64,000 bases of DNA from Fibrobacteria bacterium (GCA_043745805.1 JAYTSD010000045.1:96001-160000); one strand, 5' to 3'; counted from the first letter of the stretch, positions 34,032-50,118 are shown. Notes: a model not told the origin generated them from the sequence alone. Numbers and translations are program-made.

Positions 34032-34733
34032 TTAATAGTATTCGCTTAAAATCACTCGCTGGAAAATTTCGAAATATTCTTCTCCGCGCTTTTCCATATC
34101 GAGCGGTTTATTTAAAAATTCATAAAAGCGTCCTTGGCGTAAAGTTTTATGCATAAGATTATCATCACCCGCAGGATTACCCGTGATCAGCACAAATTTT
34201 AAAAAGGGTTTACTTTTGTGGATTAAATCGCAAAGTTCATTGCCGCTCATTTGTGGCATTACTTCATCAGTAATCACTAATACTACTTCGCTATTTTGCA
34301 AAATAAATTGTGCCGCTTCTTGTGGGTTTTGAAAGGTTTTTAAATTCAGGCGCTTGCCATATTTGCGTTTGAAAAGAAATAGATTATCCTCTTCATCATC
34401 TACATAAACGACCAAGGGATTATTTAAACCATGATGTATACAAGAAAAAATATGATCGGCCATTTGCCCTAAGGTTTTATAATGCCCCATATCCATGGGT
34501 GTACCGCGGTACATCTCCTGCATGGCAAACATCATGGCAATATTAATAGTGATGCCCCCAAAGCGATGTTTTAATTCCTGGTCTAAAAGGGCTATGGTTT
34601 CTTTTTGTATATGGCAATCAAGCAATGCGCATTCGCTATTGCGTAGGACTGGCTGTGGAACAAAGGCGGGATTTTCTCCAGCTAATTTGTCGAGTACGCT
34701 TAGTAAAATCTCAAAAATTCGCGGTGAACGCAT
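34032..34733 (-). CDS. Response regulator: degenerate ACP-like N-terminal domain plus C-terminal receiver domain
   Basis: REC motifs VYVDDEEDN, VITDEVMP.MSG, ITG, FLNKP; paralog of 42176..42841. Confidence 0.8.
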   Translation of the reverse strand: MRSPRIFEILLSVLDKLAGENPAFVPQPVLRNSECALLDCHIQKETIALLDQELKHRFGGITINIAMMFAMQEMYRGTPMDMGHYKTLGQMADHIFSCIHHGLNNPLVVYVDDEEDNLFLFKRKYGKRLNLKTFQNPQEAAQFILQNSEVVLVITDEVMPQMSGNELCDLIHKSKPFLKFVLITGNPAGDDNLMHKTLRQGRFYEFLNKPLDMEKRGEEYFEIFQRVILSEYY

Positions 34734-34831: not shown

Positions 34832-35803
34832 TTAAACTTGATTGCGAGGATGAAAAGACTTATGCGTTTCTCGCAAATAATCCTGATCCAAATGGGTATA
34901 AATTTGTGTGGTGCTAATATCGGTATGGCCCAGCATTTCTTGCACGGAACGTAAATCGGCACCGGCTTCAATTAAATGAGTGGCAAAAGTATGCCGAAAA
35001 GTATGGGGTGAAACGGCAGTTTTAATATCGCTAGCCAGGCAAATTTGTTGTACGATTTTCCAAGCTCCCATACGGCTTAAAGGTTTGCCGCGCCAATTAA
35101 GCAGTAAAGTATTATCGCGAGCATTAAGGCTTTGTCTTTCGCTGGCTAAATATTGTTTTAAGCTTGCCGATACTTTTTGGCCTAAAGGCACAAGTCTTTG
35201 CTTATTTCCTTTGCCTTGCACCATTACCACATCTTCATCGAAATGTAATTGATCAATTTGCAAAGTAATTGCTTCGGAAATGCGTAATCCTAATCCATAC
35301 AATAATTCAATTAAGCAAAGATTACGTGCCGGTCCAATTTTGTTTTCGCCATTATTTTGCAAGGCTTCCGGAAGTTCTGAAAGATGTGTATAAATACTTT
35401 GCATTTCCACATGGCTCAAAGAGGAGGGCTTATAACGCTGTTGCCGTGGCGCGCGCAGGCCCATAGTGGGATCTTCAGTCAATAAATTTTCTTCGATTAA
35501 ATACTGGCAATAGCTTTTAATGCTGGAAACATAACGTGCTAGGCTTGCCGCAGCAATGCCTAAATCGGTAAGACCTTGGATGAATCCTCGTAAGGTTAAA
35601 GCGGTTAAATCTTTCACTGTGGGTTTATTATTGTTTTGCGCGAGATGGCGAAATAGTAAGAGTAAGTCGCGAGTATAGGAATCCACCGTTTCGGGGCTAA
35701 GCCTTTTTTCTAATTGCAATAAGGCTTGGTAACCGCTAAGTGACGGTATTTCGGGATCCGCAGGGGAATCTTTTTCCGTTAATCCTAATCCTTGTTTCTC
35801 CAC
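34832..35803 (-). CDS. xerD: Site-specific tyrosine recombinase XerD
   Basis: EKRLSPET..SY..DL, LYGLGLRISE, GKGNKQRLVP, LSRMGAW, HTFRHTFATHL..GADLRSVQEMLGH.DISTTQIYTH. Confidence 0.88.
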   Translation of the reverse strand: MEKQGLGLTEKDSPADPEIPSLSGYQALLQLEKRLSPETVDSYTRDLLLLFRHLAQNNNKPTVKDLTALTLRGFIQGLTDLGIAAASLARYVSSIKSYCQYLIEENLLTEDPTMGLRAPRQQRYKPSSLSHVEMQSIYTHLSELPEALQNNGENKIGPARNLCLIELLYGLGLRISEAITLQIDQLHFDEDVVMVQGKGNKQRLVPLGQKVSASLKQYLASERQSLNARDNTLLLNWRGKPLSRMGAWKIVQQICLASDIKTAVSPHTFRHTFATHLIEAGADLRSVQEMLGHTDISTTQIYTHLDQDYLRETHKSFHPRNQV

Positions 35804-35806
35804 GCT

Positions 35807-36802
35807 TTAAGGAATCCCTTTATCAATCACCGCTTTGGCCAAACGATGAAAAAGTGTTGGATTTGCGATGGCCTTACTTAAATTTTCGCGGGTTAAGCTC
35901 GCGGCTAAATCTTTATGATTGCTTGAGCACCAATGTAAGGTATAAGTATTTTCTGGCAAGATTTTTCCTGGGCCATAAAAAAAACGGAAAGTTTGGCTGG
36001 GGGGTATGGTGTAAAAATAATCGCTGCCAAGCCTTGTCATTTCAGAGTCCATGTGATCTCCGGCAATGCCCGTAGGGTCAGTAGGCTTGGACCCAAATAA
36101 AGCAAAAGCACGATTCATTAATATAGGACCGAGATTAAAACGAATAGTAGGATCGGTTTCGGGAATAAGTTTTAATACTTGCATAAAAAAAGCACTACCG
36201 GCTTCGCAAGCCAATACCGCATTGTTTAATTTTTTTGCACTCCATAAGCGCATAAGTATTTTATTAATCACATTAATAGCGCGACTGTCTTTTAAAAATT
36301 TTGCATTCCATAAAGAGAGATAATAACTAAGTCCAAAAGCCGCGCCGAAAGGAATGATTTCGGGAGTGAACTTGCCTGCTACTCTATCATCATCGCATCG
36401 AAATACAGCTTCTTCACCAATGAAGGCGCGATGTTTTAATAAAGGTGTATAATCTTTAACCGTAAGGGTATCGAAATCTAAATAAATACCGCCTTCGCGC
36501 ACTAAAATCAGATAACGCAAAATATTGCTTTTGCCAGCTAAATAAGTATTAGAAATGGAGGCAATGATTTGTTTCATGCTTTGCCATTCTTCGGGCAAGC
36601 CTTGCAATAAAGCCGCTAAATCAATAGGTCGAAATTCCACGCGGCCTTGCAGATTTTTCCAAAATTCATTGTGAGGTGGATTTTCAAAATGAATAGTCAC
36701 TTTAGCATTTGGATTAGTTTGTAAAATAGATTCAATGGCAAGTTGATTAACAAATGGGAAATGTTGACCTATCCAAATGAGATGAAAATGATGAGGAATC
36801 AT
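35807..36802 (-). CDS. DXD-motif glycosyltransferase (GT32 / Gly_transf_sug family)
   Basis: Likely start MIPHHFHLIWIG (36802); SNILRYLILVREGGIYLDFD, NNAVLA, GP.L, LHW. Confidence 0.85.
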   Translation of the reverse strand: MIPHHFHLIWIGQHFPFVNQLAIESILQTNPNAKVTIHFENPPHNEFWKNLQGRVEFRPIDLAALLQGLPEEWQSMKQIIASISNTYLAGKSNILRYLILVREGGIYLDFDTLTVKDYTPLLKHRAFIGEEAVFRCDDDRVAGKFTPEIIPFGAAFGLSYYLSLWNAKFLKDSRAINVINKILMRLWSAKKLNNAVLACEAGSAFFMQVLKLIPETDPTIRFNLGPILMNRAFALFGSKPTDPTGIAGDHMDSEMTRLGSDYFYTIPPSQTFRFFYGPGKILPENTYTLHWCSSNHKDLAASLTRENLSKAIANPTLFHRLAKAVIDKGIP

Positions 36803-36899
36803 AATTTGCTTTTGGGGATAAACGGTGAGAATGGGTTGCGTGGCGAAAGTGTTTTTGTGGTATTGTCGGTGATCAATCGCATATAATAAGACGAATATA

Positions 36900-39002
36900 A
36901 TGAAAACCACGCCGAATGCAAAGTATTGCCGAACCTTGAGTAAACAATATTGTTCCTTAAGTCTGTGGATTTTTTGCTTCAGCTTATTTTTGCATACGGT
37001 TGCCGCGAATTCTTTCGCTCAAGATTCACTGAATAAAGCGGATTATTATCAGCCCACCATTCTAAAAGTTTGGGAGAAAACCATTGCAACCAATAGGGGC
37101 GTGCATGCTTGGAATAGCGATAATGATGGCCTATTAGTTTTTCAGGAATGGATAGCCTCAATGATTTTAGCACGTCATAGTTCCGAAGTCGCACAAATTA
37201 AACTGGGACGTAAATTGGAAAATTATGTGGTGGGTGGAAATATTAAACCCTTAGGATATGTGGGTACCACCTTGCCAGTTCCAGGTTTTGGCGAGGGAGA
37301 TTTTGATATGACTTTATTGAGTTGTATGACCTTGCTCGGCACCTTTGAACGCGACACTTTAATGTTAACGCATAAAACCTATGTGCATTTATTACGTCAG
37401 GTAATTTGTCTTTGGGGACAAACTCCCAAAGAAAATTTCGATATTTTTTTTCTGAGTTTCCCAGAAACAGAAAATCATTTATTCATGTCGGAAAGTATTC
37501 GCTATCTTACCAATCAAATATTGTATGAAAATCCTCGGCATTTAATTGCCATTAAACATTTGCGTGACTCCTTAACTCATGCCGGCATTGAGTTAAATAA
37601 TAATAATGGGGTAGTGCGGCGGTTACTATTAAAAAATATGCAATTGGTGCTTTCACGCGGGCTTTTTGAATTTAATGCAAAGGTTTATCAACGCTTTACT
37701 TTACATGCTTTGGATAATCTCTATAGCTTTGCTTCGGATTCAACCCTAGTGGCGGCTTCGCAAAGTGTTTTGCATTATTTAGCCACCAAATTTGCTTTCC
37801 AAAGTTTTAATGGTATTCGCTTTGGGCCTTATCGACGTAACTCGGAAAAATTTGCGGATTCCTCCTTAATTGACAGTGATGCGGCATGCAGTTTTTTTGC
37901 TATTCAAAGTGGCAAGTTTAATTGGGATAATAATTATTGGTTTGCGCATCGTTCCCATGCCGCTATGGCACTTTATTCCACGGTATTAAAATATAGAGTA
38001 CCCGATATATTATTGGATTTTATGCAAAATCGTGAAAACCCTTATTGGGCTTTATTTAGCAATGGTATTAATGTGGAGGCTAATGGTGGGCAAGCTTTGG
38101 AAAGTTACTATGGTGCGCCACATTTTTTGATGAGCGCTGGAGGTCAGTACACGGCATATGCGGGACGGAATTTTCCTACGCAGGGTTTTTGGTTAAAAAA
38201 AGCGCCTTGGGTTTATGATGTGGTAAGTCGTTCGAGTTCGGTCATTTTAGATCCGGCTATTAAGCAACCTTATGCTTTAACGGATATTCTGCATTTTAAA
38301 GGCGCACAATGGAAAGCCAATAATTTAGCTCTGCATCAAAATTTTCTGTATGGTTATGCCGAGGCTAGCCATCGTAAGGATTGGCCACAAGCTATTCCGA
38401 GTGATTGGCAACAAGATGGGGAAATTATGGATGGCGGAGGATTTGAATTTCGCTTTTATGATCAAAGCCGGCAAGGCGTATTTATAGTGCTAACGCGCTT
38501 GAAAAACCTGCCTTCATGGCGGTTTTGGGAGCGAACTTCTACGGTAAGAGGCACTATCGAAGTGGTGGATACGGCGGAAGCTCATTCCCTAGTTCTTTTT
38601 AAGGCAAAAATGCGCCAACAAAACATGCAAACATTAGGTAATCTATTTACTGCAAAACGGTTATATACCACCTACAAGGGTGTTAAATTAACGCTTAATC
38701 CAAGCTATGATAATACCCATACGGGCATTGTAAAAATACAAAGCCCACAAGATAAGGCGATTTGGAAACAAGGGTTATCTCCAGTATTCAAAAAAAGTAA
38801 TAGCTTATTGCAGGTGAATTGGATACAAGCCGATGGCTTATTAGGGCAGGAAATTGCCTCTGGAGATGGTCAAGGTAACTTACAGGTGATTAATCCGCAT
38901 TTGCAGCAAGAATTAAATATTTGCTTTAAAGAATGGTGGAATCCATGGATAGTTATGCAGGCTTGGCCGGTCCTTGAAAACAATATCAATAATGTGAAAT
39001 GA
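36900..39002 (+). CDS. Large secreted hypothetical protein, possibly alpha-toroid lyase-like
   Basis: Signal-like N-terminus; ETENH, RYLTNQ, GLFEFNAKVY..F...ALDNLY.FA, GPYRR. Confidence 0.6.
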   Translation: MKTTPNAKYCRTLSKQYCSLSLWIFCFSLFLHTVAANSFAQDSLNKADYYQPTILKVWEKTIATNRGVHAWNSDNDGLLVFQEWIASMILARHSSEVAQIKLGRKLENYVVGGNIKPLGYVGTTLPVPGFGEGDFDMTLLSCMTLLGTFERDTLMLTHKTYVHLLRQVICLWGQTPKENFDIFFLSFPETENHLFMSESIRYLTNQILYENPRHLIAIKHLRDSLTHAGIELNNNNGVVRRLLLKNMQLVLSRGLFEFNAKVYQRFTLHALDNLYSFASDSTLVAASQSVLHYLATKFAFQSFNGIRFGPYRRNSEKFADSSLIDSDAACSFFAIQSGKFNWDNNYWFAHRSHAAMALYSTVLKYRVPDILLDFMQNRENPYWALFSNGINVEANGGQALESYYGAPHFLMSAGGQYTAYAGRNFPTQGFWLKKAPWVYDVVSRSSSVILDPAIKQPYALTDILHFKGAQWKANNLALHQNFLYGYAEASHRKDWPQAIPSDWQQDGEIMDGGGFEFRFYDQSRQGVFIVLTRLKNLPSWRFWERTSTVRGTIEVVDTAEAHSLVLFKAKMRQQNMQTLGNLFTAKRLYTTYKGVKLTLNPSYDNTHTGIVKIQSPQDKAIWKQGLSPVFKKSNSLLQVNWIQADGLLGQEIASGDGQGNLQVINPHLQQELNICFKEWWNPWIVMQAWPVLENNINNVK

Positions 39003-39174: not shown

Positions 39175-39295
39175 GGGTCATCGCAGAAAATGTGGGGACC
39201 CGAAAAAATCAATGAATGCTGCTGGGGTACATTTGGAAGGACCCTGGTCACTCGAGGAAAAAGCCCGCGCAACGCTTTTAAACCCGGCAGCATTC
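39175..39295 (+). ncRNA. Candidate structured small RNA (unknown family)
   Basis: GC-rich island in an AT-rich spacer; hairpin GGGTC..GACCC (39175-39201) and 13-bp stem GAATGCTGCTGGG/CCCGGCAGCATTC (39214-39295); G.U pairs favour the + strand. Confidence 0.35.
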
Positions 39296-39305
39296 GGATT
39301 TACTT

Positions 39306-40682
39306 TTAACTCTCTTCGTGAAAATCAATTTTTGCATCCGCATGCACACTGAAACTTCCCTGTCCATTGATTACGATATGTAAACCAATTTTTTGTGTTT
39401 CTAATTTTGCTTTTAAACGATATAAGCGAATTTCAAAATTTGGTTTCTTTTGTCCGGCTAAAAGATTTTGATCTTTTTTGAAACTGCGATATTCAAATTC
39501 CTTTTTGCCTTTGTGAATCAATTCAATTAAAATATTGCGTAGTATTTTTGCAGAAACCGTTTTTAAAAAAATTTTTCCATTTAAAATGAGTTGTACTTCT
39601 TGAGGTCGATAAATAAAAACAATATTCGCTTCAAGCTGACTAATTAAATTTTGATGCTTGCGCATTAATGCTCCAGCAAAAATCTTTTCATGTTGTGCCG
39701 CATCTTCGACTAAGTGCTTGAGAAATAGGCCATTTTTTAACTGGACTTTTTGATGCTTAACACAAGTCATGTATATAGGAGCGCTGTATACACACTGGGC
39801 GTGGAGCAATATGCGCTGGCGTAAGGGGCAGAAAAAATCCTTTTCCATAAGGATTACTTGCGCTGCGGGAATTTTATATTTCGCTAAGCTTAACTCATGG
39901 CTTTTTAAAAAATCAGTGAAGGCTATTTTGTGACCGTAACATTCACCGTTTATCCATAATTGTTGACCTTTAACGCGTACGGAATGATCGGGTAAAATAT
40001 TATTTATAGAACGAATATCAGATAAATATTGCAACTGTGCAAAAGGCGCCAAGCCTAAAATTTTGGGAGCTTTTAAAATTTGGGGGCCGACTACAAAATC
40101 AAAATTAAAATTAAAGGCATGGGTAAAGGTTTTGTCGGGAATATAAACTAAATAGGATTGTACTGATTTTTTTCCCTCCACCTTTTTTACGCGGCGATGA
40201 ATATGCCCTGGCAAATATTTTTCCGTACACACCGAAATCAAATCAAAAACCATATCATGTGTATCCGTGGCATTGAAGGCCTTTTGCATCAAGGGATAAA
40301 ACCAAGCTAAAATTTCTTTACCAGGAAAATAGGTAGCGGCATTATTTCGATAAAGCAGTTTTTCTATGAATTTATTTGGAGAAACCCCCTTGCTGATTAA
40401 AAAAGGTTCCAAATCATTGACCACATAATAATTCCATCGCAATGGAATTTTTCCTTCACAGTGCCAAAGAAAATGCAGCAGCTCGGCGCCAATCAATATT
40501 TTATCGGGATAAACAATAGGGTGTGCTTCCCAAAACTCTAAAATCCATTCCCGTGGAAATAATTGCAACATAGTCACATACGAGGCGCGGTGAAAATCGT
40601 GAATGGTTAAGGGATCCTGCATGAGATAGCGGGTTTGTTCAAGGGGCGCTTCGTTATCTATCAGCAGTGCTTCTTTGATCAT
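39306..40682 (-). CDS. Putative transcriptional regulator, C-terminal winged-helix-like domain (paralog 2)
   Basis: C-terminal LNGKIFLKTVSAKIL..IL...GKKEFEYR.F...NFEIRLYRL..KL....GQGSF; paralogous to the adjacent gene over its full length. Confidence 0.65.
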   Translation of the reverse strand: MIKEALLIDNEAPLEQTRYLMQDPLTIHDFHRASYVTMLQLFPREWILEFWEAHPIVYPDKILIGAELLHFLWHCEGKIPLRWNYYVVNDLEPFLISKGVSPNKFIEKLLYRNNAATYFPGKEILAWFYPLMQKAFNATDTHDMVFDLISVCTEKYLPGHIHRRVKKVEGKKSVQSYLVYIPDKTFTHAFNFNFDFVVGPQILKAPKILGLAPFAQLQYLSDIRSINNILPDHSVRVKGQQLWINGECYGHKIAFTDFLKSHELSLAKYKIPAAQVILMEKDFFCPLRQRILLHAQCVYSAPIYMTCVKHQKVQLKNGLFLKHLVEDAAQHEKIFAGALMRKHQNLISQLEANIVFIYRPQEVQLILNGKIFLKTVSAKILRNILIELIHKGKKEFEYRSFKKDQNLLAGQKKPNFEIRLYRLKAKLETQKIGLHIVINGQGSFSVHADAKIDFHEES

Positions 40683-40696
40683 AGGAGTTGCTTTCC

Positions 40697-42049
40697 TTAA
40701 CCTATTTCGCGGAAATCGATTTTCCGATCACAGATTAAAGTAAAAGTTCCGCGTCCATTTTTCACTATACTTAGGCCTAATTTTTCTTGGTCGAGTTTTT
40801 CCATTAGGCGATAAAAACGGATTTCAAAATTGGAATTTTTTTGGTGGTTGGATATTTCAAAATCGGCTTTGAACTCTTTATACTCAAATTCAGTTTTACC
40901 CTCGCGAGTATAGGCGAGAAGAATATCCTTTAAAATTTTGGCGGGGGTATTTTTTACAAAATGTTTTCCATTGAGGGATAAACTTTGATCTTGAGCATGA
41001 TAGAACGCACGTATTTTATTTTCTAATTGCTTTACTAATTCCCCATGTTTTTTTTCCAATTCACTTTTGGAAAAGGATTTTTCTAAATCGGCATCTTCAA
41101 CCAAATGTTGTAAGAAACTGATTTTTTTCTTTTGCAACTTATGATGTTGCATGCAAATCATGTATAGCGGCGCACCATAAGCGCAATTGGCATAGAGGAC
41201 AATGCGTTTGCGGAGTGGACAATAATAATCTTTGTGCAAATGAAATACTTCGGCATCGGGCGCATCAATTTTGCCTAAATCAATATCCAATTTTTTCAAT
41301 AAAGCATAAAAAGTGGTTTTTTTGCCAATCCAATCCCCTTCGACATAGCAATCCGAGCCTTTATATTCGGCCTTTCCGGTCCATAGTACATCGTCTACGG
41401 TGCGTGTATCGCAAATATATTCAACGTTATTAAAAGCAGGCAAAGAAAGAATCTTGGAACTGGATTTGAATTGTTCTCCGGCCACAAAATCGAAATTAAA
41501 TTTTACCATATTGCTAAAATTTTTATCGCTACAATAAACCAAATAAGAATGTACCACATTTTCTTTTTCAACTTTTTTGACACGGCGACTTATATGTTGC
41601 GGTAATAATTTCGAGGTAAAAATATCAATCAGTTTATAAGCCATATCCCAAATATCATAGGCATTAAATACTTTGCCCATAAGCGGATAAAACCAAGACA
41701 GTATAGTTATACCTGGGATATACGTAGCTTGATTGTTACGGAAGAGAATTTTTTTAATGAAGCTATTTCCGTAAATACCTTTGGAAATTAAAAAGGGTTC
41801 AATAGCGTCACCCGTGGTATAATCCCAAGTGACAGGGACTTTATTATTCGCTTGCCATAAATGCTTAACTAATTCATCATCCGCAATGAGGTGTGTGCCC
41901 TCTTGAATAGGATATGCAGACCAAAACTCTTCCAGCCAATCCAATGGAAACTCAGCCAGCATGGTAAGATAAACGGAGCGTTGAAAATCATTAGTGGTTT
42001 TTAGCTTTTTATAAGCATTAGTCCATTTATTAATGAGCTGTTGTCCCAA
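40697..42049 (-). CDS. Putative transcriptional regulator, C-terminal winged-helix-like domain (paralog 1)
   Basis: TTG start after AAGAGG; C-terminal DQSLSLNGKHFVKNTPAKIL..IL....GKTEFEYKE...NFEIRFYRL.EKL....GRGTF. Confidence 0.65.
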   Translation of the reverse strand: MGQQLINKWTNAYKKLKTTNDFQRSVYLTMLAEFPLDWLEEFWSAYPIQEGTHLIADDELVKHLWQANNKVPVTWDYTTGDAIEPFLISKGIYGNSFIKKILFRNNQATYIPGITILSWFYPLMGKVFNAYDIWDMAYKLIDIFTSKLLPQHISRRVKKVEKENVVHSYLVYCSDKNFSNMVKFNFDFVAGEQFKSSSKILSLPAFNNVEYICDTRTVDDVLWTGKAEYKGSDCYVEGDWIGKKTTFYALLKKLDIDLGKIDAPDAEVFHLHKDYYCPLRKRIVLYANCAYGAPLYMICMQHHKLQKKKISFLQHLVEDADLEKSFSKSELEKKHGELVKQLENKIRAFYHAQDQSLSLNGKHFVKNTPAKILKDILLAYTREGKTEFEYKEFKADFEISNHQKNSNFEIRFYRLMEKLDQEKLGLSIVKNGRGTFTLICDRKIDFREIG

Positions 42050-42175
42050 TGTAGCCTCTTTAAACGATTCAAATGCCTTGTCAAATCTGCATTTTTTTAA
42101 AGCGGCTTAAACCCTAAATTCGGAGAAAAATAGGGTAAGAGAAAGTAAAATTAAGGTTTTTTAAGTTTTGTAAAT

Positions 42176-42841
42176 TTAAAACTTGGCGAAGTAAATTAAG
42201 CCTAAAACCAAATTCAAATACTCTTCACTTTTGTTTTCTAAGTCCAATGGCTTATTAATGAATTCATAAAAACGGTTGTGACGCAAGCTTTTATACAATA
42301 AATTGCTATCGTCATCGGGATTGCCGGTGATTAAAATGAATTTCAAATAAGGTTTGGTTTTATGCACTTCATCGCAAAGTTCATTACCTCCCATAAGAGG
42401 CATAACTTCATCGGTTATGACTAAAGCGACATCGGAATTAGTTCTTATAAATTCCAAGGCTTCCAATGGTTTAGTAAAAGTTTTGAGAGTTATTTTTTTG
42501 CCTAATTTGCGATTGAAAACAAAAAGATTGTCTTCTTCATCGTCGACATAAACTACGAGAGGGTTTTTATTAGTGGTAACAAAAAGTTTTTCCAAGTGCT
42601 CCAATAGTTTTGCAACGGTAAGATAGGGAAACTCGGTTGGGTTTAAATAATTTTCCAGGTTTAAACGTTTTCCCTCATATCGTTTTTCCAATTCATCTTT
42701 AATTTCAGAAAAGGCAACTTGATCCACACCAATATCTTCTAGAAAAACTTTATTCGTTTCGCATTCCAACAATGCGGGTAGTGTTGCGCCATTGTTTTTA
42801 AAAACATCATTTAATATTTCATATACTTCTTGTTTTGCCAT
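42176..42841 (-). CDS. Response regulator: serine-less ACP-like domain plus receiver domain
   Basis: ATG 42841 after GAGG; LEDIGVDQVAFSEIKDELEKRY..LTVAKLLEHL (ACP pattern, DS replaced by DQ); REC VYVDDEEDN, VITDEVMP, ITG, FINKP. Confidence 0.82.
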   Translation of the reverse strand: MAKQEVYEILNDVFKNNGATLPALLECETNKVFLEDIGVDQVAFSEIKDELEKRYEGKRLNLENYLNPTEFPYLTVAKLLEHLEKLFVTTNKNPLVVYVDDEEDNLFVFNRKLGKKITLKTFTKPLEALEFIRTNSDVALVITDEVMPLMGGNELCDEVHKTKPYLKFILITGNPDDDSNLLYKSLRHNRFYEFINKPLDLENKSEEYLNLVLGLIYFAKF

Positions 42842-42884
42842 GAGAACCCTCAATTATTGTATGCCATCAAAATTAAACCACAAT

Positions 42885-44060
42885 TTAAATCATTAAACTT
42901 TCAATTTTTAATTCCTTAATAGCTTCTGCGGTAACGATAGCCGTTTTTATAATAGCTTCACGAGTAATTTCGGCGTGAACTGAAAAACGAGCAAAACTTT
43001 TATCACGCGCTGAAGCTGGAGGAGCAAATACTGAAAATAAAATTCCTTTTTCTTTCATTTTTCCATAAAGGGCGCTAGCTGTATAGGGGCCTTTAAAAAA
43101 TACGGATACGATTTGACAATTACTTGGACCAGTGGGAATACCACGTTGATTCAACTCATCCCTTAAAAGTTGAGCCATATCCATGCAATGCTGCGCTCTT
43201 TGCGGTTCCCGTAAAATAACATTCAAAGCGGCTCTGTGACCCGCAGAGTTTGGTTCAGAAGGTGAAGAACTAAAAATAATAGAGTGACAACGAAATCTTA
43301 AAAAACGAATGGCTTGTAGGCTTGCTGCGATAAAGCCTCCATTGCCGCCAATAGCTTTGGACAAGCTAACCGTTCGAAAAGGTACTCTATCTTGTAACCC
43401 TAATGAAACGGCTAAACCACCGCCATTTTCTCCAATCATTCCAAAGCTATGGGCTTCATCTAGTACCAAGGCGCAGTTATACTTTTCACATAAAGCAATG
43501 TAGGTGGGAAGATCAGCAACTGATCCATCAGTGCTATAATAAGCATCGATGCAAACAATTCCCGTTCCATCTTTTTTGATTCTTTTTTCCAAATATTCCG
43601 GATCATTATGTTTGATTAAAACAGGTCTTCCTGAAGAAAGTTTCGCACCGGACCATAATGACGCATGCGCTTGATGATCAATGTAAATAGGCAAATCAGG
43701 TGTAGCTATTGCTTCTAATAAACCGACATTAGCGCACCAACCAGCAGTAGTTACGATTACGTCTTCGCTTTTGAGGCTTTTTTTTAATACTTCCCCAAAT
43801 TTTCCATGTTCACCGGTGTCGGCTCCAAAAACCAATGAGGCTACGCTACCTGTGCCAATATTGTTATTCGCTTCATCCTTGGCTGCTATTACCTCGGGAT
43901 GGCGAGACAAGCGCAAATAATCATTTTGATGTAATTCAATATAGGCTTTTGAATCTCCAGGTTGATCGAATGGATTCGGTTGATGGCCATCCATAAAATT
44001 CAACCAGTCCTCATAATGTTTGGTTAACCATGGCGTTGTATCTAAATCATCGGAAAGCAT
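42885..44060 (-). CDS. cqsA: CqsA/LqsA-like alpha-hydroxyketone autoinducer synthase (PLP-dependent alpha-oxoamine synthase family)
   Basis: LHQNDYLRLSRHP, GWCANVGLL, IYIDHQAHASLWSG, YSTDGS, DEAHSFG, SLSKA (PLP Lys), IIFSS: CqsA-type rather than BioF-type signatures. Confidence 0.75.
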   Translation of the reverse strand: MLSDDLDTTPWLTKHYEDWLNFMDGHQPNPFDQPGDSKAYIELHQNDYLRLSRHPEVIAAKDEANNNIGTGSVASLVFGADTGEHGKFGEVLKKSLKSEDVIVTTAGWCANVGLLEAIATPDLPIYIDHQAHASLWSGAKLSSGRPVLIKHNDPEYLEKRIKKDGTGIVCIDAYYSTDGSVADLPTYIALCEKYNCALVLDEAHSFGMIGENGGGLAVSLGLQDRVPFRTVSLSKAIGGNGGFIAASLQAIRFLRFRCHSIIFSSSPSEPNSAGHRAALNVILREPQRAQHCMDMAQLLRDELNQRGIPTGPSNCQIVSVFFKGPYTASALYGKMKEKGILFSVFAPPASARDKSFARFSVHAEITREAIIKTAIVTAEAIKELKIESLMI

Positions 44061-44148
44061 GGAACGGTCCTTTTATTATCTGTATAAATGGTTTGGATTT
44101 TGTGGTTTTTTGTGTATGTGAATGAATGTCTTGCTCAAATATGCTTCC

Positions 44149-44164
44149 GGGCCTTAATATTGCA
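44149..44164 (+). promoter_or_regulatory. Putative sigma-54 promoter for the cyclase gene
   Basis: GGGCCTTAATATTGCA: GG(44150-51)-N10-GC(44162-63). Confidence 0.4.
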
Positions 44165-44202
44165 TTTGAAGCTAGAATTTTTGGCTTTTGAGGAAAAGGT
44201 TG

Positions 44203-45762
44203 ATGCTGAGAAAATTCTTTTCGAAGGATTTTTGGAATGGCCGTTCGGAATACCACCGAATGCTTTTTAATACTGACTATTCCTTTCAAAAACGTTTTAT
44301 GATGGTACTGGTATATATAGGCGCACCAGCCAATATATTTTTTCATTACTATGAACAAGATCAAGGTTATCAAGATTCTACCATTGGACGTTATGCTATT
44401 TCTCTGCTATTAGTTACACTAGTTTTCCTACCGAAGATTATCAAGCAAAATAAATGGCAAATATCGTACTGGGAACTCACACTTTTCATTTTTTTCCCAT
44501 GTATGAACACCGCCTTCATGCTGATGAATCATGTTAATCAGTATTGGTTTTCCACCTTTATTCTGGATATGGTATTTTTGGGCATTTTTACCAAATGGTA
44601 TATGATCCCTTTCCATTACATTTTTGGTAGTGCGGCAATAACATGGTGGTACTTTCACAATACAGGATATGATGCGAAATTATTTCAGGCCAATTTAAAT
44701 GCGCATGTGGCAGCCTTTCTAGGAACATGCGTTGCATCGGGAGTCGTTTTAACTATTGAATATGTTAATAAAAAATCTACTGAAGCTAAATTAGCGCTAT
44801 CTAAAGCGGAACATGATAGGCTCAGAACCTTAGAGCTACAAAAATCAAATGAAGAATTAAAAAAACGTGAGGAAATCATTAAGGTGTATGTGCGCCCATC
44901 CTTGTATGAAGAGTTAGCGGCGGGACATGACCCTCTCAAATTTCAACCTATTATGCTGCCTAAGGCGATTATGTTTTGCGACATTCGCGACTTCACTTAT
45001 TTGACGGAAATTCTTACCCCTTACGAAAAACAAACTTTTCTCAATCAATATTTCACTTTGATGAATCATGCCATTGTCAATAATGAAGGCGAAGTAGATA
45101 AAATTGTGGGCGATTGTATTATGGGTCTTTTTCCTAATGGCCGCGCAGCCGTACATGCCGCATTGGCCATGCGTAAGGCCTTGCACACATTTAATAATAT
45201 GATGTACAACAGTGGTCGTCGAAAAATCCCTAATGGTATTGGCATAGCCAAGGGCGAAGTGATGTTAGGCAATTTCGGATCTAATGAAAAACTAGATCGC
45301 ACGGTGATTGGTGAAGCGGTGAATATAGCTTCACGCTTGGAATCTAAAACCAAAATGTATGGTGTGGAAATTGTGGTGACTCAGGATGTGGTCGATGAAA
45401 TGCAGGGCTATCCCTATATGCGTTGGATTGACAATGCTAAGGTAAAAGGTTCGAGCCGACCTTTGCAGCTTTATGAAATTTATGGACATCAACCAGATGA
45501 AGTGATTGCCTATAAAGAAAAGACTAAAGTCATATTCGAAAAGGCTTTGACTATTTATTTCAATAAAGGTTTTAAAGATGCTTTACGCATGTTTCAATCT
45601 ATGTTATCCGAGGTTCCACCGCATAAATACAAAGCGAATGCACCCATGGATAATATTCTCAGCTATTATATTGAGCATTGCCGAACTTGGGTGAATGACT
45701 CCGCAGGGGCTTGGGACTTGCGGAATAAATGGGATGGCATTCATGAGTTTAAAGAAAAGTGA
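44203..45762 (+). CDS. Membrane class III adenylate cyclase with CqsS/LqsS-like 6-TM sensor domain
   Basis: Cyclase motifs MFCDIRDFT, VDKIVGDCIM, GIGI..GEV.LG.FG, DRTVIGEAVNIASRLE; N-terminal TM region with Y....R, YW..TL...P...FMLMN....W pattern as in CqsS. Confidence 0.85.
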   Translation: MLRKFFSKDFWNGRSEYHRMLFNTDYSFQKRFMMVLVYIGAPANIFFHYYEQDQGYQDSTIGRYAISLLLVTLVFLPKIIKQNKWQISYWELTLFIFFPCMNTAFMLMNHVNQYWFSTFILDMVFLGIFTKWYMIPFHYIFGSAAITWWYFHNTGYDAKLFQANLNAHVAAFLGTCVASGVVLTIEYVNKKSTEAKLALSKAEHDRLRTLELQKSNEELKKREEIIKVYVRPSLYEELAAGHDPLKFQPIMLPKAIMFCDIRDFTYLTEILTPYEKQTFLNQYFTLMNHAIVNNEGEVDKIVGDCIMGLFPNGRAAVHAALAMRKALHTFNNMMYNSGRRKIPNGIGIAKGEVMLGNFGSNEKLDRTVIGEAVNIASRLESKTKMYGVEIVVTQDVVDEMQGYPYMRWIDNAKVKGSSRPLQLYEIYGHQPDEVIAYKEKTKVIFEKALTIYFNKGFKDALRMFQSMLSEVPPHKYKANAPMDNILSYYIEHCRTWVNDSAGAWDLRNKWDGIHEFKEK

Positions 45763-48255: not shown

Positions 48256-50118
48256 ATGTTTAAACTTTTAATTCAAAAACGATTCGGACCTTTTTTTGGT
48301 GTGCAATTCTTAGGCGCATTAAATGACAACCTGTTTAAAAACACCATGGTTATTCTGATAGCCTTCCGAGCGGCCACCGAGGCGGAATCGGGCATGTTGA
48401 TTAATTTAGCGGCGGGATTATTTATTCTCCCATTTTTTCTTTTTTCAGCGGTTGCAGGTCAAATTTCCGATAAGTTTGAGAAGTCTGCTATTATGCGCAT
48501 GATTAAGGCAGCGGAAATTGGAATTATGTTCATTGGTGCCGTGGGTTTTTATACCGGCCATACGGCGCTTTTATTTGTGACGCTTTTTTTAATGGGCGTG
48601 CATTCTGCATTTTTCGGTCCGGCCAAATACAGTATTCTTCCTCAGCATCTTGAAGAGCGTGAATTGACCAATGGCAATGCCTTGGTGGAGCTGGGAACAT
48701 TTTTAGCCATACTCATAGGTACTTTAGCCGGTGGACTTTTGGCAGGTAAGCAAAATGTAATGGCCATATCAGCTTCCATTATGGGCGTGGCTATTGTGGG
48801 TTATTTAGTATCCCGAAAAATCCCTCTTGCGCCGGCTATGGATCCCAAACTAAAACTGAATTGGAATTTATTCAGTGAAATGGCTTCGCTCACGCGCATC
48901 ATCAAAAAAAAGGATTCCATTTTTAATTCCATTTTGGGTATTTCTTGGTTCTGGTTTTTTGGAGCCACCTTATTAGCGCAATTGCCAAATTTTACGCGAC
49001 ATATGCTGCAAGGTAATGAATCCGTAGTAACCGTTTTGTTGGCCGTATTTTCTGTTTCAGTGGGAATCGGCTCCGTAGTTTGCGCCAAACTTTCACGTGG
49101 AGAAATTGAACTGGGACTCGTTCCCTTGGGCGCATTAGGCATGACATTTTTCCTCGCTGATCTTTCCTTTATTAATTATCCACCCAGCGCCGAAATCTTA
49201 ATGGGTGTGAAAGCCTTATTCTCTGGGCCTTATGCAGGCGCGGGCATTCGCGCGATGGTGGATTTGGGCATGGTGGGGATATTCGGCAGTTTATTTATTG
49301 TTCCATTGTATGCTTTGATTCAACATCGGTCGGATGAAGAAACTCGCTCACGCGTGATTGCCGCCAATAATATTTTTAATGCAGTGTTCATGGTTGTTTC
49401 CGCATTAATCACCATGTTACTTTTTAAAATTGGTTTCAATACTGTGCAAATCCTTTTATTTACCGCCATTTTGAATTTGGTTGTGAGCGCTTATATTTTT
49501 CTTTTGATTCCTGAATTTGCTATGCGCTTTGTGGTGTGGATTTTAGCGAGTACTATTTATCGAATAAGTTATAGCCAGCGATCGAATATACCACGCCATG
49601 GGCCTGCGGTAATTGTCTGTAATCATGTTAGCTTTATTGATTGGTTTGTCATCACAGCGGCATGCCGTCGTCCCGTGCATTTCGTGATGGATAATAGCAT
49701 GTTTAAAAATCCCGTGTTGGGTATTTTTTTCCGTCTCTCTAAAGCCATTCCTATTGCTTCCGCCAAAGAAGATCCGGCGGTTAAAGAAAAAGCTTTCGAA
49801 TTGATTTCGAGAGAGTTAAAAAATGAAAATCTCGTTTGCATTTTCCCCGAAGGAAAAATCACGCATGATGGAAACATGAATATTTTTCGTCCTGGCGTAG
49901 AACGTATTTTGACTCAAGATGCTGTTCCTGTCTTGCCTATGGCTATTCAGGGATTATGGGGAAGTTTCTTCAGTCGCAAGCGGGGACATGCGATGTCGGG
50001 CCTCCCTAAACCCACAAGACGCAATTTAACCATTGCCATTGGCACTCCATTAACACCACTTACAAAAGCCTCGGAGATGGAAGTAACCGTTAAACAATTA
50101 TTGCAGTCCATAGCATGA
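48256..50118 (+). CDS. LplT-like MFS transporter fused to a PlsC-like acyltransferase
   Basis: QFLGALNDNLFK, FFGPAKYSILPQHL, RVIAANNI; NHVSFID, IFPEG. Confidence 0.92.
   Translation: MFKLLIQKRFGPFFGVQFLGALNDNLFKNTMVILIAFRAATEAESGMLINLAAGLFILPFFLFSAVAGQISDKFEKSAIMRMIKAAEIGIMFIGAVGFYTGHTALLFVTLFLMGVHSAFFGPAKYSILPQHLEERELTNGNALVELGTFLAILIGTLAGGLLAGKQNVMAISASIMGVAIVGYLVSRKIPLAPAMDPKLKLNWNLFSEMASLTRIIKKKDSIFNSILGISWFWFFGATLLAQLPNFTRHMLQGNESVVTVLLAVFSVSVGIGSVVCAKLSRGEIELGLVPLGALGMTFFLADLSFINYPPSAEILMGVKALFSGPYAGAGIRAMVDLGMVGIFGSLFIVPLYALIQHRSDEETRSRVIAANNIFNAVFMVVSALITMLLFKIGFNTVQILLFTAILNLVVSAYIFLLIPEFAMRFVVWILASTIYRISYSQRSNIPRHGPAVIVCNHVSFIDWFVITAACRRPVHFVMDNSMFKNPVLGIFFRLSKAIPIASAKEDPAVKEKAFELISRELKNENLVCIFPEGKITHDGNMNIFRPGVERILTQDAVPVLPMAIQGLWGSFFSRKRGHAMSGLPKPTRRNLTIAIGTPLTPLTKASEMEVTVKQLLQSIA

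Follow-up and report, generated by a model that had tools for sequence, protein, structure and literature searches.

In Legionella (LqsA-LqsR-LqsS/LqsT) and Janthinobacterium (JqsA-JqsS-JqsR), a synthase, a sensor kinase with six transmembrane segments (6-TM) and a stand-alone response regulator are encoded in one cluster. The Vibrio receptor CqsS, a sensor for the autoinducer CAI-1, has also been rewired artificially: according to the available text, CAI-1 regulates the synthesis of cyclic AMP (cAMP) in a synthetic CqsS-adenylate cyclase chimera (Beltz et al. 2016, PMC4821796), and the accessible part of a preprint describes a further engineered CqsS-cyclase chimera (Seth et al., bioRxiv 10.1101/694877). 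A cluster analysis in the accessible text of the 2016 paper kept 56 CqsS modules apart from cyclase anchors (PMC4821796), and the available passages of a 2025 review refer to CqsS chimeras as “synthetic cyclases” and treat the ligands of membrane adenylate cyclases as unknown (PMC12414865). These engineered proteins provoke a question: is there a natural counterpart? We examined a 64,000-nucleotide stretch of DNA (hereafter, the window) from Fibrobacteria bacterium (GCA_043745805.1 JAYTSD010000045.1:96001-160000). Homology and gene order support well the conclusion that a CqsS-type receptor is wired there to cAMP and is encoded beside a CqsA-like synthase.

An initial annotation of the window had proposed five genes: an alpha-oxoamine synthase, a receiver-domain (REC) protein and two winged helix-turn-helix (wHTH) paralogs (par1 and par2) on the minus strand, divergent across about 140 bp from a 6-TM sensor fused to an adenylate cyclase. 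All five open reading frames (ORFs) were found (Table 1), and six segments plus a Guanylate_cyc domain do share a single ORF of 524 residues. The divergent gap measures 127 bp from the synthase ATG at 44060 to the cyclase TTG at 44188, or 142 bp with the alternative cyclase start, an ATG at 44203. On the minus strand, 31 bp separate the synthase and REC genes, 126 bp the REC gene and par2, and 14 bp the two paralogs. The annotation had also known of no description of the arrangement, or of any such system in this lineage. In the titles and abstracts of open papers, and in passages of PMC8895600, we found only engineered chimeras and no natural CqsS-type cyclase; the open literature likewise yielded no paper joining CqsA to Fibrobacterota. 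To that extent, the locus is without a published natural example.

The sensor was studied by profile comparison. Six hydrophobic helices with short loops lie in residues 24-232 of the cyclase, ahead of the cyclase domain (hydropathy), and no Pfam family covers the CqsS-type 6-TM sensor itself. An alignment of this region from 14 orthologues (A1) was compared by hhalign with V. campbellii CqsS, giving a probability of 96.7% (E 4.1e-10), and with an alignment of five CqsS-type sensors (three from Vibrio, one each from Ralstonia and Cupriavidus), giving a probability of 97.2%, an E of 4.1e-11 and a score of 74.5 over 138 columns that span TM1-TM5. The null set consisted of 178 ORFs, out of the 246 others with several TM segments that this genome encodes; the best null scores were 26.4 (A1) and 27.0 (CqsS profile), at probabilities of about 5%, vs. 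74.5 for the real pair. The cyclase itself stands outside this set, having fewer than five segments at the strict hydropathy threshold. The matches are reciprocal. A hidden Markov model (HMM) of A1 matched all five reference CqsS-type kinases (E 4.8e-12 to 3.6e-7), and an HMM of the CqsS sensors ranked the cyclase first among 2483 ORFs of the genome, at an E of 0.0078; the next ORF had an E of 0.42, and no CqsS-type kinase is thus detectable in the genome by this HMM. Within the window protein, Pfam found Guanylate_cyc as the only output domain and no HisKA, HATPase_c or Rec.

Profiles were needed for this result. Pairwise BLAST of the cyclase vs. CqsS gave only a 42-residue match (E 0.024), and vs. 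the kinase of genome G036 it gave nothing. A word-index homologue search with cyclase residues 1-225 returned only the query, which reflects the limit of the word index and not an absence of homologues. When A1 was compared with the sequences of solved structures, the best match was a ribosomal protein (E 0.97), and neither a CqsS entry nor mycobacterial Cya was matched. From the profile comparisons, we conclude that the 6-TM domain of the cyclase is homologous to the CqsS sensor, as the annotation had implied.

The homology extends to some of the residues that contact CAI-1 in CqsS. The available text of a 2026 cryo-EM study of V. harveyi CqsS names W33, R47 and S103 as hydrogen-bond partners of CAI-1, names F26, Y29, L83, F86, F87, F158, F162 and F166 as contacts of its tail, and describes lipid-like densities in the same pocket of the apo structure (PMC13729885). 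We mapped these residues onto the cyclase through the hhalign alignment. R47 corresponds to R68, an Arg in 13 of the 14 sequences, and S103 to T123, a position occupied by Ser in 12 sequences and by Thr and Gly in one each. The counterpart of Y29 is F52 (Phe in 13 sequences, Tyr in one), and CqsS P84 and N94 align with a Pro and an Asn that are invariant in the 14 cyclases. The positions of W33, F26 and F86 vary, and the TM6 contacts F158, F162 and F166 fall outside the aligned region.

Downstream of the sensor, Pfam places Guanylate_cyc at residues 260-421 (E 4.2e-15). In a full-length alignment of 13 cyclases (A2), residues D242, D286, K282, T349, N356 and R360 (A2 numbering) are invariant in all 13; we take D242 and D286 to be the metal aspartates, K282 and T349 the substrate pair, and N356 and R360 the transition-state residues. 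The closest solved relatives of the catalytic domain are photoactivated adenylyl cyclases (5x4t, 114.2 bits; 5m27, 88.6 bits), and 3r5g scored 79.1 bits. These residues fit an active class IIIb adenylate cyclase, and we predict that the protein has this activity. The linker between TM6 and the catalytic domain also has invariant columns in A2 (R213, P214, S215, L216, E219, G223 and P226). So does the C-terminal region of about 90 residues, many of whose columns are invariant (407 to 501 of A2); it has no Pfam or NCBIfam match. Cys, His and Trp are among its invariant residues.

The synthase is encoded divergently from the cyclase, i.e. beside the CqsS-type receptor, and it belongs to Pfam Aminotran_1_2 (E 1.2e-32). 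Its best NCBIfam model is NF005526, the alpha-hydroxyketone autoinducer synthase (289.8 bits, vs. 229.3 for bioF); with the same model, the V. campbellii CqsA reference scores 696.7 bits. Among solved structures, its closest relative is CqsA (2wk8, 174.9 bits), with serine palmitoyltransferase at 145.5 bits. In a quick IQ-TREE phylogeny of 38 rows (LG+G4), the synthase lies in an 18-row clade (SH-like approximate likelihood-ratio test, SH-aLRT, 99) that is sister to seven bona fide or curated CqsA proteins (99). The joint clade has a support of 100 and leaves outside E. coli BioF, Kbl and the synthases that we call types 2 and 3, which fill the same slot in related clusters (see below). A lysine that binds pyridoxal phosphate (K235) and H132, D201 and H204 are invariant among 18 relatives. 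The clade is widespread. For database relatives with an identity of 46-67%, one source frequently gives the name “CAI-1 autoinducer synthase”. That the protein might be BioF was considered and rejected; a separate bioF-like gene (373.5 bits) adjoins bioD (111.7 bits, cut-off 83.3) on contig C43, and the window’s gene stands outside the BioF clade. With this bioF-bioD pair elsewhere in the genome, the window’s synthase is therefore not the biotin enzyme. Model score, solved relative, tree placement and separate bioF thus all favor the annotation’s view that the synthase is CqsA-like rather than BioF- or Spt-like.

Is the pairing of synthase and receptor conserved? The related loci come from metagenome-assembled genomes of Fibrobacteria/Fibrobacterota. 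In the window’s family (f1), the 6-TM cyclase occurs in 15 of the 32 genomes searched, that of the window (G000) included, and 13 of these 15 have one copy within about 200 bp of a divergent alpha-oxoamine synthase with a REC gene after it. Genome G021 (locus L045), among the 13, is flagged as unpublished; leaving it out gives 12 of 14. At locus L044, two further REC genes, with a synthase remnant between them, separate the synthase-REC pair from the cyclase. The two f1 genomes outside the 13 are G001, with a synthase and two REC genes at a contig end, and G015, with no linked copy. A second REC gene lies on the far side of the cyclase in 12 of the 13 clusters; in the window, it lies 4.6 kb beyond par1. 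Four further copies of the cyclase are the second in their cluster. Synthase, REC protein and cyclase therefore stay together, and linkage of synthase and cyclase extends to two other families: in f17, a type-1 (CqsA-like) synthase and a REC protein lie 3.4 kb from a 6-TM cyclase, and in f8 a type-2 synthase comes after a cyclase, in the same orientation. Family f13 has unlinked 6-TM cyclases. The neighborhood is thus conserved in relatives; of the five genes whose synteny the annotation had wished to see tested, these three stay together, and the paralogs, adjacent in 3 of 13 clusters, do not. The 51 cyclase loci recovered from outside Fibrobacterota lack a sensor of the A1 type (best E 0.049) and have neither REC nor paralog genes as neighbors; in two of them, the flank includes a distant synthase.

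Family f4, of the same class, presents the other output. In four of five genomes with a member of the synthase clade, a type-1 synthase is convergent with a 6TM-HisKA-HATPase_c-REC hybrid kinase, the canonical CqsA/CqsS layout. The sensors of these kinases are matched by a local A1-type HMM (E 4.3e-4 to 2.1e-10) and, for G036, by hhalign at 91%. Taken with the f1 cyclases, they show that one phylum holds both outputs on the same sensor family and with the same synthase clade. One f4 locus (L125:1987-4719) has two tandem type-1 synthases, 48% and 44% identical to the window’s, beside a single CqsS-type hybrid kinase. Locus L123:5942-10897 has three tandem genes, each with an A1-type 6-TM and with different or partial kinase parts; one of them, of 563 residues, has no Pfam output.

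The sensor family reaches well beyond these loci. A search of 1.84 billion representatives with the A1 profile retrieved 386 proteins at an E of 0.001 or below, and the CqsS-sensor HMM matched 125 of the best 150 (E of 0.01 or below in that small set; best 6e-45). CqsS relatives and the present cyclases therefore form one family. By Pfam, the best 100 of the 150 comprise 41 proteins with kinase domains, 16 with Guanylate_cyc, eight with GGDEF, three with SpoIIE, one with a protein kinase and one with Hpt only; the other 30, mostly short pieces, have nothing. The sensor is joined to GGDEF in P0133, P0141, P0142, P0176, P0186, P0203, P0205 and P0206, to SpoIIE in P0138, P0148 and P0152, and to Pkinase in P0143. 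Six short cyclases of about 400 residues (P0149, P0156, P0170, P0189, P0194 and P0210; alignment A6) also have a CqsS-type sensor. The motifs of their catalytic domains look class IIIa-like, an assignment that we make provisionally; if it is right, these proteins have the same design as the published synthetic chimera. A metagenome scan with A6 gave 79 loci, and only L135 has a CqsS-type sensor. Its cyclase (L135:5977-7155) is matched by A1 at an E of 1.8e-31 and by the CqsS HMM at 1.5e-14, and its surroundings out to 6 kb contain no synthase.

The REC protein beside the synthase had been described as an acyl carrier protein (ACP)-like domain joined to a receiver. The receiver is canonical: Response_reg spans residues 100-206 (Pfam, E 5.3e-10), and the acidic pair, the phospho-acceptor Asp, the Thr and the Lys are invariant or nearly so among 20 relatives. 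It matches receivers from cyclase and HD-domain proteins, and its structural matches by Foldseek include 3kcn, 3hv2 and, at rank 12, LqsR (6sy9; 141 columns, 24% identity). The ACP-like part of the description is borne out weakly. In a model with a predicted local distance difference test (pLDDT) score of 84.3, the N-terminal 95 residues form four main helices. The carrier serine (the DSL position) is absent from 26 of 26 members of the REC family, with Q, V, I, M, L, F and other residues in its place. PF00550 gave a weak match in 4 of 10 N-domains (E 0.039-0.2), and hhalign vs. E. coli AcpP gave a probability of 1%, with a local alignment centered on the DSL region. The nearest named clusters of the ESM Atlas carry PF00550 at 0.85-0.88, under the lead level of 0.9. 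The second REC protein of the window shares 57% identity over 228 residues with the REC protein that flanks the cyclase in L039, and 44% with the one beside the synthase.

Trees of the two REC domains, made quickly from short alignments, differ. In that of the N-domains, proteins whose upstream synthases are of one type come together: all four f1 partners of type 1 share a clade (97), as do the partners of type 3 (100), and none of 500 shuffles was as clustered. In that of the receivers, there is no such grouping, the 5 rows requiring 5 changes and all 500 shuffles being as low. Because adjacent genes are inherited together, the grouping of the N-domains shows that a synthase and its REC protein form a cassette and not that they co-evolve as such. 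We also predicted the complex of a synthase dimer with the REC protein. It scored 0.59, the best of three controls scored 0.25, the runs agreed in at least 89% of contacts and the partner had a pLDDT of at least 72. In the available text of the cryo-EM study, the Rec and RecL domains of Vibrio CqsS contact CqsA (PMC13729885), and a contact between synthase and receiver is plausible here for that reason.

The paralogs, 47% identical to each other, have no Pfam or NCBIfam match and no REC, cNMP-binding or GAF domain. In a model of par2 (pLDDT 85.7; predicted template modeling score 0.78), residues 346-449 form an OmpR/PhoB winged helix (BaeR: Z 10.5, root-mean-square deviation (rmsd) 2.4 Å, 96 residues; AdeR, Z 9.0; PhoP, Z 8.5; SaeR DNA-binding domain, Foldseek probability 1.00), so that the wHTH assignment was correct. 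Residues 18-309 match an H-NOX of S. oneidensis (Z 9.4, rmsd 3.8, 178 of 187 residues), another H-NOX (Z 8.4) and the N-terminal ligand-binding fragment of VirS (Z 8.8), where, according to the structure-search tool, a Z of 7-8 is common by chance; by Foldseek, the H-NOX match has a TM of 0.51 and an rmsd of 7.6. The summary of a 13-sequence paralog alignment has no invariant His, its positions being unmapped onto the H-NOX structure. Relatives have up to seven matches to this family per genome, often in tandem (arrays are found at G015:C23, G005:C390 and G008:C108), and a third copy is found in the window’s own genome on contig C1 (G000:C1:45864-47153). The clusters that paralogs adjoin are those of the window (two), L039 (one) and L040 (two), and L056 has a 105-residue paralog fragment. 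On these models, the paralogs look like one-component regulators with a ligand pocket of their own rather than dedicated readers of cAMP.

How might the locus work? We think it rather probable, on homology and gene order, that it is a CqsA/CqsS-type small-molecule system in which adenylate cyclase has replaced the kinase output of the receptor, and a quorum-type lipid signal is then probably turned directly into cAMP. From a substrate of the amino-acid type and an acyl thioester, the synthase would form, by condensation, an amino- or hydroxy-ketone of lipophilic character. This product would partition into the membrane and bind an outer-leaflet pocket of the receptor dimer via R68 and T123; binding would move TM6 and the linker, change the activity of the cyclase and so set cAMP, whose readers would be cNMP-binding regulators with genes elsewhere in the genome. 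More speculatively, the ACP-like-REC proteins could be adaptors with an N-domain specific to the synthase type and a shared receiver, and could tie synthase activity to a phosphorylation input, like the contact between CqsA and the Rec domain of CqsS in Vibrio; the H-NOX-like/wHTH paralogs could be optional additions, perhaps separate ligand-binding regulators.

A number of observations weigh against this interpretation. It is based entirely on homology and on gene order, as seen in genomes assembled from metagenomes. The score of the synthase falls short of the curated NF005526 cut-off (428 bits), and in the tree the synthase belongs to a sister clade, outside that of the proven CqsA proteins. 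W33, essential for CAI-1 sensing in CqsS, is not conserved (Tyr or Phe in 4 of 14 cyclases), and the position of F87 is polar in 8 of 14. Eleven further cyclase copies have no synthase nearby. The ACP-likeness of the REC N-domain is weak and not significant in any single test. The predicted complex passes in a weak way: of 157 solved complexes, 116 reached the mark, as did 2 of 215 mismatched pairs, and the passes at 0.60 or below include only 18 of the 157 solved complexes and both mismatches. Although the phospho-acceptor sites of the REC proteins are intact, the module has no kinase.

A further point concerns the synthase slot. Three non-orthologous types occupy it: a type-1 synthase in three clusters (window, L044 and L059), a type-2, Spt/BioF/Kbl-like synthase in eight (SerpalmtaseCFB, 338.5 bits) and a type-3, PRK07505-like synthase in two. 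Sister receptors have different synthases (L056, type 2, and L059, type 1, at 96; L043, type 2, and L058, type 3, at 99), and type 1 needs 4 changes for 4 rows on the receptor tree. Were the product the ligand, receptor and synthase should co-vary, unless the products had a common head group or the clusters formerly held several cassettes. Two cassettes have left traces in L044 (in the order REC, type 1, REC, type-2 remnant, REC, cyclase) and in L046, where a type-1 fragment at the contig end is followed by a REC gene and a type-2 synthase beside the cyclase; for that reason, different clusters may have lost different members of what was once a set of several synthase-REC cassettes. Because three types of synthase stand beside near-identical receptors, an alpha-hydroxyketone product is unproven, even for the window’s synthase. 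The initial claim that an autoinducer modulates cAMP directly thus fares well in one part, as a CqsS-type sensor sits on an intact cyclase beside a CqsA-like synthase; its chemistry, an alpha-hydroxyketone signal, is left unproven.

Other explanations accommodate some of the same facts. One of them is lipid homeostasis: the synthase would make a long-chain amino-ketone precursor of the cell’s own sphingoid lipid or aminolipid, and the cyclase would monitor this lipid and adjust cAMP. Some lipid pathways use dedicated carriers, and the ACP-like domain beside the synthase recalls them; this domain, however, lacks the serine. The explanation would account for the eight of 13 clusters in which the synthase has serine palmitoyltransferase, BioF or Kbl as its nearest kin, for the exchange of synthase types with no change of receptor and, as far as the available text describes them, for the lipid-like densities in the pocket of apo CqsS (PMC13729885). 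Yet the window, L044 and L059 have synthases of the CqsA superclade and not of the Spt clade, the same synthase clade is paired with CqsS-type hybrid kinases in f4, and the conserved module has no reductase, acyl-ACP synthetase or kinase gene of a lipid pathway. We regard this explanation as unlikely. Alternatively, synthase and cyclase could be mere neighbors, with the cyclase sensing an unrelated membrane or external cue and cAMP controlling the divergent synthase operon, whose product would not be the ligand. Divergent transcription from a common 127-bp region, a receptor tree independent of synthase type, the many orphan cyclase copies and the joining of CqsS-type sensors, whose ligands are mostly unknown, to many outputs would all suit this idea. 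It is nonetheless improbable, for it has to contend with the linkage of CqsS-type sensors to alpha-oxoamine synthases in four Fibrobacterota families and with two output types, a linkage that mirrors the synthase-receptor pairing of Vibrio, Ralstonia and Cupriavidus, and with the retention of the R47 and S103 contacts to the CAI-1 head group.

The full model of the initial annotation went further, in that the autoinducer would set cAMP and the two wHTH paralogs would be its dedicated transcriptional output. In the window, L039 and L040, the paralogs do come directly after the synthase-REC operon, and they carry a bona fide OmpR-type DNA-binding domain. Against this stand their adjacency in only 3 of 13 clusters (plus the fragment in L056) and the size of the family, with its up to seven matches per genome and its third copy on C1. 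The sensor part is H-NOX/VirS-like, with no cNMP-binding or GAF match, and the genome, which has two class III cyclases, encodes five cNMP_binding proteins elsewhere. Because the paralogs lack a cNMP domain, have an H-NOX-like domain of their own and occur in many copies elsewhere, they are unlikely to be the cAMP output; we have dropped this element, and the model as a whole seems very improbable.

The surroundings of the cluster contain further features. Between the second REC gene and the cluster lie a tyrosine recombinase (Phage_integrase, 34832-35803), a DXD glycosyltransferase (35807-36910) and a 700-residue ORF with no Pfam match (36900-39002); these three genes (34832-39002) may have been inserted there and so have split the module. 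At 48256-50118, two genes downstream of the cyclase, a major facilitator superfamily (MFS) transporter is fused to an acyltransferase domain (620 residues), possibly of the lysophospholipid transporter-acyltransferase type. A promoter and terminator scan found 16 consensus promoter sites, fewer than the 24.1 expected from shuffles, and is uninformative on operon structure beyond the gaps between the genes. A candidate CRP-like site, seen by eye in the divergent intergenic region, was discarded as too poor.

Table 1. Features of the cluster and of the second REC gene, with positions counted from the first nucleotide of the window.
Feature	Position	Strand	Description
Second REC protein, same family	34032-34733	-	233 aa; Pfam Response_reg at aa 108-215
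par1	39306-40682	-	458 aa; H-NOX-like domain and OmpR-type wHTH; member of family alignment A3
par2	40697-42049	-	450 aa; regulator of one-component type, H-NOX/VirS-N-like domain followed by OmpR/PhoB winged helix
REC protein	42176-42853	-	225 aa; ACP-like N-domain (aa 1-95) and receiver (aa 100-206)
Alpha-oxoamine synthase, PLP-dependent	42885-44060	-	391 aa; clade sister to CqsA
Synthase/cyclase divergent intergenic region	44061-44187	no strand	127 bp
Cyclase	44188-45762	+	524 aa; CqsS-type sensor and class IIIb catalytic domain
Cyclase 6-TM sensor domain, CqsS-type	44290-44766	+	about aa 35-193; from profile comparison
Cyclase helical linker, TM6 to catalytic domain	44767-44952	+	about aa 194-255; conserved RPSL..E..G.DP
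Cyclase catalytic domain, class III (IIIb-type)	44953-45483	+	Pfam Guanylate_cyc; invariant catalytic residues
Cyclase C-terminal domain, about 90 aa	45484-45762	+	aa 433-524; conserved columns, no assigned family

Returning to the interpretation that we prefer, i.e. a CqsA/CqsS-type system with a cyclase as its output, the pairing of receptor and synthase is well supported, and the chemistry of the signal, the relation of ligand to receptor and the role of the REC proteins are inferences. A wider reading, which we put forward only tentatively, is that Fibrobacterota pass quorum-type signals straight into cAMP by means of a natural autoinducer-gated cyclase, that the 6-TM domain is a general receptor for lipid signals and that the serine-less ACP-like-REC proteins are new, synthase-specific adaptors. 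The CqsS-type module would then have been plugged onto kinases, class IIIa and IIIb adenylate cyclases, diguanylate cyclases, PP2C phosphatases and Ser/Thr kinases. If this is true, a membrane adenylate cyclase would here for the first time have, next door, an identifiable source of the cognate ligand for its transmembrane domain, and through the REC adaptors phosphorylation would control the making of the autoinducer, in a stand-alone form of the contact between CqsA and CqsS(Rec) in Vibrio.

Whether the six-helix membrane domains of adenylate cyclases act as receptors has been an open question for decades, and the strongest argument that they do, as far as its available text goes, is the engineered CqsS chimera (PMC4821796). 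The locus would be a natural version of that chimera with a probable source of ligand alongside, and R68 and T123 can be mutated, which makes the question testable in E. coli. It would also extend CqsA/CqsS-type signaling to Fibrobacterota, and it documents a swap from kinase to cyclase output within one phylum. Finally, it points to a larger family of CqsS-type sensors (with GGDEF, PP2C and Ser/Thr kinase outputs) and to an unrecognized partner, the ACP-like-REC protein.

Measured against the Vibrio system, the window shares a synthase of the CqsA superclade beside a receptor with a homologous 6-TM sensor, the R47 and S103 contacts together with P84 and N94, and a receiver domain encoded beside the synthase. 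Unlike CqsS, its receptor has a class IIIb adenylate cyclase as output instead of HisKA-HATPase-REC, and W33 is not conserved; its synthase lies in a clade sister to CqsA, below the NF005526 cut-off, and its receiver is a separate protein with an ACP-like N-domain. The Lqs and Jqs systems resemble the window in clustering a synthase, a 6-TM sensor and a stand-alone regulator, and the REC protein aligns with LqsR (6sy9). Their sensors, in contrast, are kinases, the match to LqsR is no better than those to many other receivers, and we know of no counterpart of the ACP-like N-terminal domain in either system. The class IIIb cyclases (OaPAC/bPAC, CyaB) are the nearest solved relatives of the catalytic domain and share its Lys/Thr substrate pair; the window’s cyclase differs from them in having a CqsS-type membrane sensor instead of a BLUF or other soluble domain, and an extra conserved domain of about 90 residues at the C terminus. 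Like the synthetic chimeras, it joins a CqsS-type 6-TM receptor by a helical linker to a class III cyclase. Unlike them, it is a natural fusion, has a IIIb catalytic domain and is linked to a synthase gene.

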